DNA of 64,000 nucleotides from Candidatus Dormiibacterota bacterium (GTDB taxonomy: Bacteria; Chloroflexota; Dormibacteria; Dormibacterales; Dormibacteraceae). Shown in pieces: positions 1,498-57,791 of the stretch. How positions within the stretch are numbered: position 1 is the stretch's first letter; every line of letters begins with the position of its first letter. The notes beneath the pieces are model-generated. The model did not search any database. It saw only the letters and a list, made by a program, of their open reading frames with translations, and was not told the DNA's origin. The position numbers were made by a program, and so were the translations under genes. Where the stretch lies: the NCBI GenBank assembly GCA_035934385.1, contig DASYXY010000030.1, positions 374 through 64,373 of the forward strand, read 5' to 3'.

Positions 1498-2031
1498 ATC
1501 AACGATCAGATCCGCAGCTCCGAGGTGCGGCTGATCGATGACCAGAACAACCAGCTTGGCGTGCTTTCTCTGGACGCCGCGCTGCGCATCGCCAACGAGA
1601 AGGGATTGGACCTCGTCGAGGTGGCGCCGCAAGCGAACCCGCCGGTCTGCCGCCTGATGGACTACGGACGATTCAAGTTCGAGACCGTCAAGCGAGAGAA
1701 GGACCAGCGACGCAAGCAGAACGTCATCAAGCTCAAGGAGATGAAGCTGCGGCCGAAGGTGGCCGAGCACGATTTCCAGACCAAGTTCAAAGGGCTCAGG
1801 CAGTTCCTCGAAGCAGGCGAGAAGGTAAAGGTGACGATTATGTTCAGGGGCCGCGAGATGGTGCATCAGGACATCGGCCGCAAGATCCTCGAGAGGGTCG
1901 CCGATGACGCGCGCTCATTTGCGGTGATCGAGCGGCAGCCGCTGCTCGAGGGCAAGAACCTGTTCATGATCCTCGCGCCGAGCCGGCAGGGCGCGGTCGC
2001 TGTGCCGAAGGAGTCAGCCACCAGTGCCTAA
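1498..2031 (+). CDS. infC: translation initiation factor IF-3, probable non-canonical ATC start
   Basis: The ORF-track product (from GTG 1525) begins inside the conserved IF-3 N-terminus. The in-frame upstream sequence reads INDQIRSSEVRLIDDQNNQLGV..., which matches the IF-3 N-terminus. The frame opens after TAG 1468-1470. ATC 1498 lies 6 nt after AAGGAG (1486-1491). There is no ATG/GTG/TTG in between. Confidence 0.9.
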   Translation: MNDQIRSSEVRLIDDQNNQLGVLSLDAALRIANEKGLDLVEVAPQANPPVCRLMDYGRFKFETVKREKDQRRKQNVIKLKEMKLRPKVAEHDFQTKFKGLRQFLEAGEKVKVTIMFRGREMVHQDIGRKILERVADDARSFAVIERQPLLEGKNLFMILAPSRQGAVAVPKESATSA

Positions 2032-6719: not shown

Positions 6720-7267
6720 CCTGGGTCGACATCCTGCCGCTGGCCTTGATCGTCATCTACGGCGTCCTCGGCCTCTTCACCGGCGTGCTTCGGCGGGTCA
6801 TCGGGTTGATTGCCGTCTACATCGGCTGCATCGCCGCGACAGGCATGGGGCTGCAGGCCGCAAACATCATCCAGCAGGCGTCCACCACGGAGCTGCCTGA
6901 CGCGCGCATCTACGGGTTCTTCGGTCTGCTGCTCGTCGTCCTGCTGGCGGTCGACGGCGCCGCGCAGCTGGCACATCGCCAGATCCAGATCGAGGCGATC
7001 GTCTGGAACCGCGTCTCAGGCGTGCTGGTCGGCATCCTCACAGCGGTGCTGCTGTCGGTGGTCGTCACCTATGAGCTGCAGGCGGCGGGGCACCCCAGCG
7101 GCGGCGGTCAGCTCGCAGGCACCCAGGCGCAGATCCGAGCCGCCGTCGACGGATCAAAGATCGCCGTCCCGCTCGTCAACTCGCTGGGCCGGCCGATAAT
7201 CGCGGTGTTCCAGCCCGCGCTCCCGTTCGACCCGCACCAGTACTTCAGCCGCGGGATAGTAAGCTAG
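6716..7267 (+). CDS. CvpA-family membrane protein
   Basis: 183 aa, four hydrophobic spans, N-terminus MTWVDILPLALIVIYGVLGLFTGVLRR is typical of the CvpA family. ATGA overlap with pheT. Confidence 0.6.
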   Translation: MTWVDILPLALIVIYGVLGLFTGVLRRVIGLIAVYIGCIAATGMGLQAANIIQQASTTELPDARIYGFFGLLLVVLLAVDGAAQLAHRQIQIEAIVWNRVSGVLVGILTAVLLSVVVTYELQAAGHPSGGGQLAGTQAQIRAAVDGSKIAVPLVNSLGRPIIAVFQPALPFDPHQYFSRGIVS

Positions 7268-7308
7268 CGCCCGCTCTGTCTTTCTTCGAAGACCTGCGCG
7301 AGCGCGCG

Positions 7309-18151: not shown

Positions 18152-18580
18152 ATGACCAGCTACCGCACCGACCAGGTCGGCGAGCAGGTGCGTGAGGAGA
18201 TCATGTCGATCATCAGGCGCGACCTGAAGGATCCTCGCATCGGCTTCGTCAGCATCACCGCGGTCCGCATGTCGCCGGACCTTCGGCAGGCGCGCGTCCG
18301 CGTCAGCGTGCTTGGTGATCCGGACCAGAAGAAGGCGTCGCTGCAGGGTTTGATCTCGGCCAAGGGCCTCATCCGTCACGAGCTGGGGCGGCGGCTCGAG
18401 AACCTGAAGTTCTCGCCAGAGCTGCGATTCGAGCTGGACCCGTCGATCGAGTACAGCGCCCACATCAACGAGCTGCTCAAGGCAGTCCTACCCGCGACTG
18501 AGGGTTCGGATCCGGGGTCCCCACGAAATCTCGGCGGAGCCTCCGATTTCGTGGGGGACTCTGAGGGGGAGCAGACATAG
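18152..18580 (+). CDS. rbfA: ribosome-binding factor A
   Basis: ATG 18152 follows GGAGG (18143-18147). RTDQVGEQVREEIMSIIRRDLKDPRIGFVSIT is typical RbfA. Confidence 0.9.
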   Translation: MTSYRTDQVGEQVREEIMSIIRRDLKDPRIGFVSITAVRMSPDLRQARVRVSVLGDPDQKKASLQGLISAKGLIRHELGRRLENLKFSPELRFELDPSIEYSAHINELLKAVLPATEGSDPGSPRNLGGASDFVGDSEGEQT

Positions 18581-19581
18581 CCACCGCCCAGAGCGAGACC
18601 GGCGGTCTCTACGACCAGATCAAGGAGCTCATCGACTCCAACGACGAGATCCTGATCTTCGGCCACAAGGACGCCGACGGCGACACGCTGGGCTGCAGCC
18701 TCGCTTTCGCGGAGGCGCTGCGCACCGCGGGCAAGCACGTATGGGTGCTCATCCCGCACCCGCTCCCCGACATGTACTCGTTCCTACCGGGATTCGACGA
18801 CATCCACGAGGGCCCGCCGAGCGGTGTCGAGCCGCAGCTCGTTTTCTTCTTCGACTCCGGGAACCTGGAGCGCTCCGGCTCCACCGTAAAGCACATCGCC
18901 TCGAAGGCGACCATCGTCAACATCGACCATCACCCGTCGAACTCGCGCTTCGGCGACGTCAACGTCATCGATCCCGACGCTTCGGCGGTCGGGCAGATGG
19001 TGATGGACATGCTCGACCACTACGGCTACCGGATCACTCCGACGATCGCGACCAACCTCTACGTCGCGCTCCTCACCGACACCGGCGGCTTCCGTCACGA
19101 GAACACAACGGTGCGCGCGCTCGAGGACGCGGCGCGGCTCGCTAGCCTCGGTGCCGACCCCGGCCACATCGCGACCATGGTCTACAAGATGCGGCCCGAG
19201 ACGACCCTCAAGCTGAGCGGCATGGCCCTCGCCACGATGCGAGTCGAGATGCACGGCCGGCTGGCATGGGCCAAGGTGACGCGGCGCATGCTGCGCGAGG
19301 CGAACGCGGTCATGGCTGAGTCCGAAGGCATCATCGACACGCTCAACTCGATCGCCGGCCTGGAGCTCGCGATTCTATTCAAAGAGGTGCAGAGCGACCT
19401 GACAAAGATCAGCGTGCGCAGTCGCGGCGCGGTCGACGCCGCGGCGATGTGCGCGCTGTTTGGAGGCGGAGGACACATCCGCGCCGCGGGCGCCGAGATC
19501 GACAAGTCCATGGACGAAACGGTGAAGGTCGTTCTGGCCACGGCCAAGGAGGCGATCCTTGCCGCCTCAGTCAAGGCCTGA
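18577..19581 (+). CDS. nrnA: DHH/DHHA1 phosphoesterase (NrnA-like oligoribonuclease/pAp phosphatase), non-canonical start
   Basis: DHH motif I (ILIFGHKDADGDTLGCS) lies upstream of the first canonical start (GTG 18745). The frame opens at 18565. ATA 18577 overlaps the rbfA stop as ATAG. DHH, GGGH motifs lie downstream. Confidence 0.8.
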   Translation: MATAQSETGGLYDQIKELIDSNDEILIFGHKDADGDTLGCSLAFAEALRTAGKHVWVLIPHPLPDMYSFLPGFDDIHEGPPSGVEPQLVFFFDSGNLERSGSTVKHIASKATIVNIDHHPSNSRFGDVNVIDPDASAVGQMVMDMLDHYGYRITPTIATNLYVALLTDTGGFRHENTTVRALEDAARLASLGADPGHIATMVYKMRPETTLKLSGMALATMRVEMHGRLAWAKVTRRMLREANAVMAESEGIIDTLNSIAGLELAILFKEVQSDLTKISVRSRGAVDAAAMCALFGGGGHIRAAGAEIDKSMDETVKVVLATAKEAILAASVKA

Positions 19582-44001: not shown

Positions 44002-44286
44002 ATGTCAGCGGAAGGGCGCGCTCCGGTGGAGGTGCTGAAGGTGTCAGCCACCTCCAAGCCGGTTGCCGTGGCCGGCGCCATCGCTGGGGTGATCCGCAGC
44101 AAGGGCAGGGTCGAGGTCCAGGCCATCGGCGCAGGCGCGATCAACCAGGCGGTCAAGGCGATCGCCATCTCCCGCGGCTACGTCGCTCCTGGCGGCCTCG
44201 ACCTGGTGTGCATCCCCGCCTTCATCGACATCTCGATCGACGGAGAGGAGCGCACCGGAATCCGTCTACTGGTGGAGAGCCGATAA
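44002..44286 (+). CDS. spoVS: SpoVS-family protein
   Basis: ATG 44002 gives MSAEGRAPVEVLKVSATSKPVAVAGAIAGVIR...QAIGAGAINQAVKAIAI. Confidence 0.9.
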   Translation: MSAEGRAPVEVLKVSATSKPVAVAGAIAGVIRSKGRVEVQAIGAGAINQAVKAIAISRGYVAPGGLDLVCIPAFIDISIDGEERTGIRLLVESR

Positions 44287-45551
44287 TCCGAGCGAGGTCG
44301 TTCCACATCTGGACCATCGGGTGCCAGATGAACACCGCGGACTCCGAAAGCATCGCGCGGAAGCTGCTCGCAGCGGGCTACGTCGAGGACTCGCTGGAGC
44401 GCGCCGACATCGCGATCCTCAACACCTGCGTGGTGCGGCAGGCGTCAGAGGAGCGCGTCTATTCCAAGCTCCACGAGCTGAGGCAGTGGAAGACGCCCGA
44501 GCGAACGATCGCAGTCACCGGGTGCATCGTGGGCAAGGAAGGTGAGCATCTGCGGAAGCGATTCCCGCTGATCGACGCCGTTGTTCCCATTGGCGGGTAC
44601 GACGGCTTCATCGCTGGCCTGCAGTCGCGCTATGACTGGTCGCTGGGCGAGTCTCTGCCTTCGGCCGGCCGGACAGGCGTGAGCCACTTTGTCAGGATCA
44701 TCCAGGGCTGCGACCACAACTGCACGTTCTGCATCGTTCCGAAGGTTCGCGGCCGCGAGCGGCACGTACCGATGGCCGCGGTGCTGGCCGAAAGCAGCCA
44801 GGCCATTGTCGACGGCGCACGAGAGATCGTCCTGCTCGGTCAGAACGTCGACGACTACCGTGACCCCGACGGCCGCGGCGGGATGGCGGCGCTCGTGCGT
44901 GAGGTGGAGCGGCTGCCGGGTCTGAAGCGCCTTCGCTTCATGACGTCGCACCCGCAGGATCTCGAGGCTGAGCTGCTGGAGGTCATGGCAGCGAGCAACG
45001 TCGTGTGCCGCGAGTTGCAGTTGCCCGTCCAGTCAGGCGACGACCTGATCCTCCGCCGCATGGCGCGCGGTTACCAGACGCGCCACTACCACGCGATCAT
45101 CGAGCGCGCTCGCGCGTTGATGCCTGACATCGGGCTCGCGACCGACGTGATCGTCGGCTTTCCGGGTGAAACCGAAGCCGCCTTTCAGAACACACGGAGA
45201 TTGCTCGAGGACATCGAGTTCGACGTCGTGCACCTCGCGATGTATTCGCCGCGACCGGGCACGTACGCCGCGACGAAGATGCCCGACGACGTGCCCGATG
45301 CCGAGAAGCTGCGAAGGCTCAACGACCTGCTAGCGCTGCAGCGCGAGATCGCCGCGCGCAAGACCGCACGCTGGGTCGGGCGCGAGGTCGAAGTCCTTGT
45401 CGAAGGACGCGACGAGCTGGGCCGGGCGTACGGACGCATCCGGCAGGGCAAGCGCGCCGTCGTGCTCGGCAACGCCGAACCTGGAACCCTGGTCGACATC
45501 CGCGTGATCCAGGCGACGGCGGGTCAGCTGATGGGTGCTCGAGCGGCGTGA
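44283..45551 (+). CDS. miaB: tRNA-i6A37 methylthiotransferase MiaB (start either ATA/ATC 44283/44286 or ATG 44208)
   Basis: FHIWTIGCQMNTADSE, radical-SAM CDHNCTFC, TRAM domain. ATG 44208 would overlap spoVS by 79 nt. ATA 44283 overlaps the spoVS stop as ATAA and gives a typical-length N-terminus. Confidence 0.9.
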   Translation: MIRARSFHIWTIGCQMNTADSESIARKLLAAGYVEDSLERADIAILNTCVVRQASEERVYSKLHELRQWKTPERTIAVTGCIVGKEGEHLRKRFPLIDAVVPIGGYDGFIAGLQSRYDWSLGESLPSAGRTGVSHFVRIIQGCDHNCTFCIVPKVRGRERHVPMAAVLAESSQAIVDGAREIVLLGQNVDDYRDPDGRGGMAALVREVERLPGLKRLRFMTSHPQDLEAELLEVMAASNVVCRELQLPVQSGDDLILRRMARGYQTRHYHAIIERARALMPDIGLATDVIVGFPGETEAAFQNTRRLLEDIEFDVVHLAMYSPRPGTYAATKMPDDVPDAEKLRRLNDLLALQREIAARKTARWVGREVEVLVEGRDELGRAYGRIRQGKRAVVLGNAEPGTLVDIRVIQATAGQLMGARAA

Positions 45552-56866: not shown

Positions 56867-57268
56867 TTACGAGGAAGGCGTGGGCGGCTCGGGTTCGCGG
56901 GTCGACAGCGCCCGCTGCAGGAGCAGGAGCGCGGCGCCGATGTAGAAGGCTCCGAACACGCGGGCCAGGAGCCCGCTCTCGAGGTGCACAGCGAGCAGCG
57001 CACCGCTGACGGCGCCCACCACGCCCGCCCCGCCAAGCCACCAGGCGGCGGTGACGTCGGCGTTGCCCTGGCGCAGGTGCGTGATCCCACCGACCAGGGC
57101 AGTGGGCACGATGGCCGCAAGCGACGTGCCCTGGGCGACCGTCTGGACCAGGCGAAAGCCGATGGTCAGGATCGGCACGAAGACCAGGCCGCCGCCGACG
57201 CCGATGGCGCCGCTCAGCAGGCCTGCGGCCAAGCCCCCGATTACGGCCGCCACATCGTGGAGCGTCAA
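56867..57268 (-). CDS. TauE/SafE-family anion exporter, C-terminal half (separate ORF)
   Basis: TTG 57268 overlaps the stop of the N-half ORF (TTGA). LTLHDVAAVIGGLAAGLLSGAIGVGGGLVFVPIL... is the second repeat of the TauE fold. Confidence 0.65.
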   Translation of the reverse strand: MTLHDVAAVIGGLAAGLLSGAIGVGGGLVFVPILTIGFRLVQTVAQGTSLAAIVPTALVGGITHLRQGNADVTAAWWLGGAGVVGAVSGALLAVHLESGLLARVFGAFYIGAALLLLQRALSTREPEPPTPSS

Positions 57269-57633
57269 GGGAGCAGCACCTGCTTGATCCCAACGAGCGC
57301 CATCAGGACTGCCACTCCGATGCGAAGCGGCCGCTCGGGAATGCTCTTCAGCGCCCGTGCGCCGATGTAGGCGCCGACCATGCTGCCGATGACGAGGAAC
57401 AGCGCCACCCGCAGGTCCATCTGCGGCGCGCCCGCGCGAAAGTAGTAGATGGGAAACGCGGCGACGGCGATGGGGATGATCGCCACAAGGGAGGTGGCAT
57501 TCGCCTGCCTCTGGCTGAGCCCGGCCCAAAGCACCAGCAGCGGGATCATCACAAACCCGCCGCCGACGCCGAACAACCCGCCCAGAAACCCGCCGAGAAA
57601 CCCGATCGCCGAGAACCGGGCCGGCCGGCCTAT
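57265..57633 (-). CDS. TauE/SafE-family anion exporter, N-terminal half (separate ORF), probable ATA start
   Basis: The first TM and the G-x-GGG motif (FSAIGFLGGFLGGLFGVGGGFVMIPLL) extend upstream of TTG 57576. ATA 57633 overlaps the stop of the upstream small ORF as ATAG. Confidence 0.6.
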   Translation of the reverse strand: MGRPARFSAIGFLGGFLGGLFGVGGGFVMIPLLVLWAGLSQRQANATSLVAIIPIAVAAFPIYYFRAGAPQMDLRVALFLVIGSMVGAYIGARALKSIPERPLRIGVAVLMALVGIKQVLLP

Positions 57634-57791
57634 TCCCCGGACCTGGGTGGTGTGGGCGTAGGCGGCTGCGGCTGGTTCGTCACCACCGAGTGATGGCGGA
57701 ACTGCACGTCCGCCGCGGCGGCGCCGCCCGGCTGCTTGGCCTTCTTCTTTTTCTTAACTTCGCGGCCTTGCTTGTTTCGGCCTTTTGCCAT
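57630..57791 (-). CDS. hypothetical Lys-rich 53-aa protein
   Basis: ATG 57791 gives MAKGRNKQGREVKKKKKAKQPGG...PQPPTPTPP. It has an A-rich Lys run in a high-GC genome. It overlaps the 3' end of the LOR/SDH gene by 38 nt. Confidence 0.35.
   Translation of the reverse strand: MAKGRNKQGREVKKKKKAKQPGGAAAADVQFRHHSVVTNQPQPPTPTPPRSGE

Follow-up and report, generated by a model that had tools for sequence, protein, structure and literature searches.

In a 64,000-nucleotide stretch of the genome of an uncultured soil Dormibacterota bacterium (family Dormibacteraceae; assembly GCA_035934385.1, contig DASYXY010000030.1, positions 374 to 64,373 of the forward strand; hereafter the window), three genes, nrnA, miaB and the first of two TauE/SafE half-genes, probably begin translation at ATA codons that share bases with the stop codon of the gene upstream. 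Each of these codons differs from AUG at one position and overlaps a TAG or TAA on the same strand in a 4-nt junction (ATAG or ATAA), and at all three loci the encoded protein domain begins before the first canonical start (ATG, GTG or TTG), at residues 25, 7 and 4 against codons 57, 16 and 20. An earlier note on this DNA had located the overlapping ATA codons correctly at 18577, 44283 and 57633 (the last on the minus strand) and had proposed that they are real starts whose recurrence is no coincidence; comparison with orthologues, which that note had called for, supports this for the three loci and for argH, with ATA conserved across genera, the last codon of the upstream gene variable, and GTG, ATG or CTG substituting at the same codon. 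The conserved ATA junctions look like a maintained means of low, coupled expression, and not like an error.

The genome containing the window (G000) is a draft metagenome assembly of 2.9 Mb in 93 contigs, with a GC content of 66.8% and an estimated completeness of 95%. ATA is rare in it (1.26 per 1000 sense codons), and codons ending in A make up 6% of all sense codons. Genomes of relatives are labelled below with G-numbers and their loci with L-numbers.

The rbfA/nrnA junction

The features of this junction are:
18152..18580, plus strand: rbfA coding sequence (Pfam RBFA, 1.9e-33), whose TAG at 18578-18580 shares two bases with the nrnA ATA
18563..18571, plus strand: Shine-Dalgarno (SD)-like purine tract GAGGGGGAG in the rbfA tail, with GGAG at 18568-18571, 5 nt 5' of the ATA
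18577..18579, plus strand: ATA, proposed nrnA start in an ATAG overlap, from junction conservation and coding onset
18577..19581, plus strand: nrnA, a DHH/DHHA1 nanoRNase / pAp phosphatase of 334 codons plus stop (Pfam DHH, DHHA1)

The rbfA gene ends in ACA TAG, and the nrnA frame reads GAC ATA GCC across the same bases. As the earlier note had seen, this frame opens only at 18565, after a TGA at 18562-18564 and four codons before the ATA, and contains no ATG, GTG or TTG before GTG 18745, which is codon 57 and lies 56 codons downstream of the ATA. Pfam DHH begins at residue 25 of the ATA-started protein, whose encoded N-terminus is M-ATAQSETGGLYDQIK, and a start at GTG 18745 would remove DHH motif I.

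The junction was compared in two sets of genomes, 30 relatives of the same class and 80 species-level Dormibacterota genomes. Among the 30, ATA GCC ACC was present in 13 genomes of the same family, each time behind a GGAGG-like motif, and in four of these 13 the frame opens just four codons before the ATA, with none of the four codons near-cognate. More distant members of the family carry GTG GCC ACC (L013), ATG (L016, L017, L022) or ATC after GGAGG (L019, L020) at the homologous codon, and in other families of the class nrnA starts with ATG. In the larger set the junction is ATAG in 74 of 80 genomes, and in 65 of the 74 the open frame lacks a canonical start ahead of the DHH motif. Eleven different triplets serve as the last sense codon of rbfA in these genomes, all of them ending in A (TCA 22, CCA 17, CAA 9, AAA 8, CGA 7, ACA 4, TTA 2, CTA 2, and GCA, ATA and AGA). 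Because A-ending codons are so scarce in the genome, and because a third-position A is retained in other genomes at only 20% on average (17 nrnA codons with A at the third position in G000), the junction A is not one that the RbfA protein requires.

GGAG at -12 to -9 was found in 68-74 of the 75 relatives scored for it, within an otherwise variable RbfA tail; for comparison, an SD match of at least 4 nt accompanies only ~40% of ATGA and GTGA junction starts in G000. Among 53 genomes with identical spacing, entropy at codon positions 1, 2 and 3 was 0.76, 0.84 and 1.34 over the 11 codons following the ATA, and flat at 1.44, 1.42 and 1.48 before it. The first three of these codons encode a conserved Ala-Thr-Ala with synonymous variation. 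Since both the coding periodicity and the conserved tripeptide set in directly after the ATA, translation of the nrnA frame would begin at that codon, and ATC 18613, which the earlier note had offered as the next option, is set aside on the same grounds.

ATA is among the start codons of NCBI translation table 11. In NCBI records of relatives, NrnA is 333-334 aa long and begins MAT...; the Prokaryotic Genome Annotation Pipeline already calls the ATA start, and other pipelines yield truncated forms of 324 to 278 aa. Across pipelines, public NrnA orthologues are given as 334, 333, 324, 317, 309, 297, 287, 280 or 278 aa, and the shortest of them lose the Pfam DHH hit.

The spoVS/miaB junction

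The second junction comprises the following features:
44002..44286, plus strand: spoVS coding sequence (Pfam SpoVS, 1e-37), whose TAA at 44284-44286 overlaps the miaB ATA
44274..44277, plus strand: GGAG within the last spoVS codons, 5 nt 5' of the miaB ATA
44283..44285, plus strand: ATA, proposed miaB start in an ATAA overlap; the same codon is ATA, CTG or GTA in the family
44283..45551, plus strand: miaB, a tRNA methylthiotransferase of 422 codons plus stop (Pfam UPF0004, Radical_SAM, TRAM)

Here spoVS ends in CGA TAA and the miaB frame reads CCG ATA ATC. Pfam UPF0004 begins at residue 7 of the ATA-started MiaB (encoded N-terminus M-IRAR...), and the next canonical start is codon 16, from which the protein would lose the first cysteine of its cluster. 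The upstream canonical codon at 44208 had been taken for an ATG; it is a GTG, and the 79-nt overlap with spoVS that a start there would create had been given correctly.

Junctions of relatives found by protein similarity carry GGA GAG or GGA GGT at the GGAG site (CGA GAG in one). In this first sample, CCG ATA A was seen in the window's genus and in one other genome and CCG CTG A in six other genera; in two of these (L043, L047) the open miaB frame is devoid of canonical starts. A pattern search of 159 family genomes then gave 99 junctions; the pattern had GTGGAG fixed, and these junctions are therefore no test of GGAG conservation, and it permitted ATGA, GTGA and TTGA. The junctions recovered were:
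CGC TGA (CTGA): 70 of 99
CGA TAA (ATAA): 18 of 99
CGG TAA (GTAA): 9 of 99
CGC TAA (CTAA): 2 of 99

Although the pattern allowed them, ATGA, GTGA and TTGA were found at none of the 99 family junctions, and this absence of strong codons suggests selection for a weak start at spoVS/miaB instead of mere tolerance of one. ATAA occurs in five genera, four of which also hold CTGA, from which it follows that the two forms have been interconverted several times. Synonymous sites in the same 30 nt are saturated, with Gly written in all four ways, Arg in six and Leu in several, and the base before the stop is A in 62% of junctions ending in TAA and C in 70/70 ending in TGA; in G000, CGA and CGG supply 10% and 26% of CGN Arg codons. 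The second miaB codon varies by genus (ATC, ACC, ACG, ACA, AGT or AAA), and the junction codon stays ATA, CTG or GTA. One of the two CTAA genomes has its own GTG start downstream, and none was seen in the other. Taken together, C only before TGA, mostly A before TAA, hardly ever a null codon and never a strong one, the pattern is a strong indication, if not a formal test, of stabilising selection for a weak start. Across Dormibacteraceae, CTG with TGA and ATA with TAA or TAG serve as interchangeable weak junctions, and GTA with TAA or TAG is probably a third.

At six loci (L204, L209, L211, L226, L233, L239) spoVS and miaB are separated by a G/C-rich insert of ~45-60 nt that carries an inverted repeat, about CCCTCTCCC ... 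GGGGAGAGGG, and in L211 and L226 miaB has its own GTG start after it. This insert may be a hairpin-forming or mobile element.

The TauE half-gene junction

On the minus strand, the third junction involves:
57630..57791, minus strand: Lys-rich open reading frame (ORF) of 53 codons without a Pfam match, whose TAG at 57632-57630 overlaps the ATA of the TauE half
57631..57633, minus strand: ATA, proposed start of the first TauE half in an ATAG overlap, kept in relatives
57265..57633, minus strand: first TauE/SafE half-gene, 122 codons plus stop (Pfam TauE, 8.1e-28, from residue 4)

The Lys-rich ORF ends in GAA TAG and the TauE frame reads GGA ATA GGC, encoding an N-terminus of M-GRPAR... from the ATA. 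Both parts of the earlier description hold: the ATA overlaps the TAG of the 53-aa ORF, and TTG 57576, which is codon 20 of the half-gene, falls inside the first transmembrane motif. ATAG or ATAA is present at this junction in 11 relatives (L061-65, L067, L071, L072, L076-78) and is kept behind the Lys-rich ORF as well as, in genomes without that ORF, behind an ArgZ-like gene; the exceptions include CTGA in L068 and GTGA in L066. The sequence 5' of the ATA holds only a G-rich tract abutting the codon in G000, and GGAG in L077 and L078. The Lys-rich ORF (MAKGRNKQGREVKKKKKAKQ...VQFRHHSVVT...), which lies between the ArgZ-like gene and the TauE half, has its ATG and an undisrupted frame in seven genomes from several genera, and it probably encodes a real small protein.

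Within the TauE region (56870-57633, minus strand), the first half-gene matches the C-terminal half of the Pfam TauE model (126-236) and the second the N-terminal half (2-114). The order of the halves may be the reverse of that in the model, unless the two repeats are simply too alike to be separated.

Genome-wide statistics and other genes

Genes of G000 were called by codon log-likelihood, giving 2914 genes at 93% coding density. A filter for coding ORFs based only on GC content at the third codon position was dropped, as it let antisense shadow frames pass and returned ~6300 "genes"; model-free triplet counts after GGAGG or GGAG were unusable, being dominated by the periodicity of GGAGG within genes. 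There were 694 4-nt overlap junctions: ATGA 185, GTGA 184, CTGA 140, TTGA 50, CTAG 37, GTAG 36, ATAG 19, GTAA 15, CTAA 13, TTAG 9, ATAA 3 and TTAA 3. Stops across the 2914 genes were TGA in 48%, TAG in 38% and TAA in 14%, a TAG share that is unusually high for a bacterium.

We refer to a codon overlapping TAG or TAA by 4 nt as an NTAR junction (ATAR where the codon is ATA), and scored such a junction as having no alternative when no canonical start lay between -15 and +8 codons. This was the case at 10/22 ATAR junctions and 17/113 other NTAR junctions (Fisher p = 0.0027), so that the genome-wide excess of ATAR overlaps envisaged in the earlier note exists but is modest. Compared with stops in general, those at junctions had an excess of both A and G before TAR (chi-square p = 0.005), and ATAR junctions that do have a canonical alternative stand at the background frequency of A before TAR (11% vs 10-14%). 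The alternative-free ATAR cases include nrnA and miaB, and in four others the Pfam domain begins ahead of the next canonical start, at 7 against 27 for a HAD hydrolase, 29 against 60 for a PLD-like protein, 9 against 15 for ArgH and 14 against 20 for XdhC. Among relatives, argH has the ATAG junction in ten from several genera, and CTGA and GTGA in one each. Many of the alternative-free junctions in the other NTAR class have a CTG or ATC a few codons away, as in fmt and tyrS. More broadly, no canonical start was present in 183/2914 called genes as far as eight codons beyond the point where coding was estimated to begin, a figure to be read as a rough upper bound, and among these ATA was weakly enriched (odds ratio 1.9, p = 0.03) and CTG more strongly. 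ATA was not enriched for SD sequences in a per-codon test near gene starts of G000, where an SD of at least 5 nt precedes only 14% of ATG codons and is too weak genome-wide for such a test. The comparative data are much stronger than these single-genome statistics.

A further gene, encoding a pyridoxal phosphate (PLP) threonine-dehydratase-like protein (G000:C80:78739, plus strand; L244-L248, L252, L249, L257), carries a GTA that shares bases with the preceding TAG or TAA. This holds for each of the five genus genomes and for G008, which belongs to another genus, with no canonical start nearby; the same codon is GTG in G020 and ATA in G019. GUA may therefore serve as a start codon in Dormibacteraceae, although it is absent from the standard bacterial start list.

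The tyrS gene (window 7264-7280, plus strand) and fmt (G000:C60 near 3003, minus strand) have a CTG a few codons after a CTAG or TTAG junction and no canonical start before their conserved N-termini, which in fmt would be (M)KLVFAGT. Both appear to start at CTG.

Translation machinery

The earlier note had suggested that IF3 of this organism, whose own gene uses ATC, might have altered start-codon discrimination residues. The ATC start was confirmed:
1498..2031, plus strand: infC (initiation factor 3, IF3), ATC start at 1498 after AAGGAG-N6 (TIGR00168, 218.9 bits)

We take Y75, R99, R131 and E134 (E. coli numbering) to be the fidelity residues of IF3. Aligned to E. coli IF3 (8jsg_A), the window protein is identical at R99, R131 and E134 and has F in place of Y75, as in Geobacillus. 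With the fidelity residues canonical, an altered IF3 was ruled out. An infC starting with ATC is the usual non-canonical autoregulatory arrangement, and such a start suggests that start-codon discrimination is intact; nothing points to relaxed discrimination.

G000 has one initiator-type tRNA, with the C1xA72 mismatch, three G-C pairs in the anticodon stem and a CAU anticodon, as well as two further CAU tRNAs. ARAGORN detected no tRNA with a UAU anticodon there, in a genome that is 95% complete. Of the 159 family genomes, 129 hold the initiator-type anticodon stem-loop, which reads CAT, with one extra TAC hit and no TAT. As the single initiator is canonical, an unusual initiator tRNA was likewise ruled out. 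TadA needs a tRNA-like UACG loop; the site lacks one, and A-to-I editing of AUA to AUI was dropped as a candidate.

Weighing the alternatives

Several points weigh against reading the ATA codons as starts. The start assignments come from sequence comparison within an uncultured lineage; the family genomes are related and are not independent samples; and the single-genome statistics are modest (p about 0.003) and depend on a home-made gene caller. SD use is weak genome-wide, and the case built on SD motifs carries most weight at nrnA and less at some other ATAR genes. Nor is there an absolute need for one particular first base, given that GTA replaces ATA at some junctions: at 3/80 nrnA junctions, in one of which an ATC follows (L147), at one TauE junction among the relatives, and at the nine GTAA miaB junctions, six of which run straight into miaB with an ACG second codon as the sole other candidate. 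ACG follows the miaB junction codon in two genera and is a possible alternative start there.

The GTA junctions bear most directly on the idea that re-initiation is largely indifferent to the codon, with a terminating ribosome held by the SD restarting on any NUA or NUG that lies over the stop and ATA simply the commonest tolerated state. GTA at nrnA, at miaB and in all five genus genomes of the PLP threonine-dehydratase-like gene, often with no alternative near, would fit such indifference, and a GUA start in E. coli recJ reportedly keeps IF3-sensitive activity. We nevertheless consider this explanation unlikely: CTA and TTA almost never stand at the conserved junctions (CTAA at 2 of 99 for miaB), at miaB A precedes TAA in 62% of cases although CGA makes up only 10% of Arg codons, C precedes TGA there without exception, and CUG, AUA and GUA can each be read as AUG or GUG with one extra mismatch. 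In E. coli, moreover, re-initiation still depends on an initiator tRNA that is formylated and has the three G-C pairs (PMC2268962). A somewhat less probable explanation is that another non-canonical codon nearby is the true start, such as ATC 18613 in nrnA, ATC 44286 in miaB or an ACG second codon elsewhere, and that the ATA is kept for an unrelated reason. Codons of this sort do occur only a few triplets away from the ATA; infC uses ATC, which also stands behind GGAGG in nrnA of L019 and L020 and behind GTA in L147. Yet the Ala-Thr-Ala directly after the nrnA ATA varies synonymously and is hence translated, the nrnA frames of four relatives open four codons before the ATA with none of them near-cognate, the second codon of miaB differs among genera when the junction codon does not leave the set ATA, CTG and GTA, and nothing else would readily explain why the last rbfA codon, in all its eleven forms, has A as its third base.

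That the junctions reflect sequencing or assembly error, pseudogenes, or a programmed frameshift fusing neighbouring genes is very improbable. The genome is indeed a metagenome-assembled draft in 93 contigs, but the same junction recurs in dozens of independently assembled genomes and the downstream genes are intact and under purifying selection; the last codon of the upstream gene varies, leaving no slippery site, and the proteins are evidently separate in relatives where a spacer intervenes and the downstream gene has an ATG or GTG to itself. Hardly credible at all is a dedicated initiator-type tRNA with an anticodon matching ATA, given that the only initiator-type tRNA of G000 has CAU, that ARAGORN found no UAU tRNA there, and that the family stem-loops read CAT.

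Proposed mechanism and relation to known systems

Initiation at the ATA codons could proceed as follows. A ribosome finishing rbfA, spoVS or the Lys-rich ORF would terminate with its decoding centre on the ATA, the SD would keep the 30S subunit in place at the junction, and the ordinary initiator tRNA (CAU) would pair with AUA despite the A-C mismatch at the third position, so that the protein would begin with (f)Met. Because AUA is a poor start, the downstream enzyme would be made at a small, fixed fraction of the upstream protein, and this fraction would be sensitive to IF3 levels. GUA may be weaker again as a start, since it has both the G-U wobble seen with GUG and the mismatch at the third position seen with AUA. 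It is conceivable, and we offer it tentatively, that graded suboptimal starts (CUG, AUA, GUA) at 4-nt overlaps are under stabilising selection, with strong codons (AUG, GUG) excluded at particular junctions and null codons (CUA, UUA) excluded as well; the junction codon would then be a setting that evolution can adjust to fix the proportion between neighbouring proteins, and genes ending in TAG or TAA would join -4 coupling, from which they are usually taken to be barred.

AUU is the non-canonical autoregulatory start of infC in E. coli. The window junctions resemble autoregulatory infC, with AUU in E. coli and AUA in S. aureus, in using an AUH start, and IF3 discrimination governs the infC start, which in this organism is ATC; they differ in that nrnA, miaB and the other genes are unrelated to initiation and no feedback loop is implied. 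In E. coli, AUA has 1-2% of the activity of AUG (bioRxiv 10.1101/063800). In S. aureus, retapamulin ribosome profiling placed AUA starts at infC, ccpN and citZ, and luciferase reporters were used to test them. These starts are described as giving about 10% of AUG in vivo, with ccpN reaching as much as 30% in rich medium, and extended SDs direct initiation at infC and ccpN (PMC13009471). The Dormibacterota junctions are like these S. aureus cases in that AUA would be a conserved, deliberately weak start with a strong or extended SD. In contrast, they are known from comparison only, lie in 4-nt overlaps with TAG or TAA, involve many housekeeping genes and extend across the family, whereas the available part of the S. 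aureus account does not place its AUA sites in stop/start overlaps (PMC13009471).

Termination-reinitiation has been described at -4 overlaps of the ATGA and GTGA kind (PMC6728339, PMC10666635), and the coupling literature takes the third base of the start to be G, so that only TGA can form the -4 overlap (PMC10666635); here TAG and TAA join through ATA and probably GTA. In E. coli re-initiation, excess IF3 is inhibitory (PMC2268962). The GUA start of E. coli recJ, reportedly suppressed by IF3 mutations (Haggerty & Lovett 1997, cited in PMC2268962), is, like GTA here, doubly deviant and weak, and recJ is reported to lack an SD and to be apparently coupled to an upstream ORF; that GUA is a laboratory mutation, whereas GTA here is natural and sometimes genus-wide. 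Our literature search found no paper linking Dormibacterota with start codons. AUA starts and -4 coupling are each already known separately; what is new is their combination in ATAG and ATAA overlaps and its family-wide conservation at housekeeping genes. New, too, is that strong starts appear to be excluded and that GUA is probably used as a start.

Conclusion

Gene callers limited to ATG, GTG and TTG truncate proteins of this kind, down to NrnA entries without their catalytic DHH motif, and annotation is distorted across the phylum as a result. The rbfA/nrnA and spoVS/miaB pairs provide defined junctions at which to ask if start-codon choice is looser in re-initiation than in de novo initiation. 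Read as starts, the ATA codons of Dormibacteraceae would extend the -4 coupling overlap from TGA to TAG and TAA, and would represent a natural, lineage-wide case of near-cognate start codons held by selection at overlapping genes.

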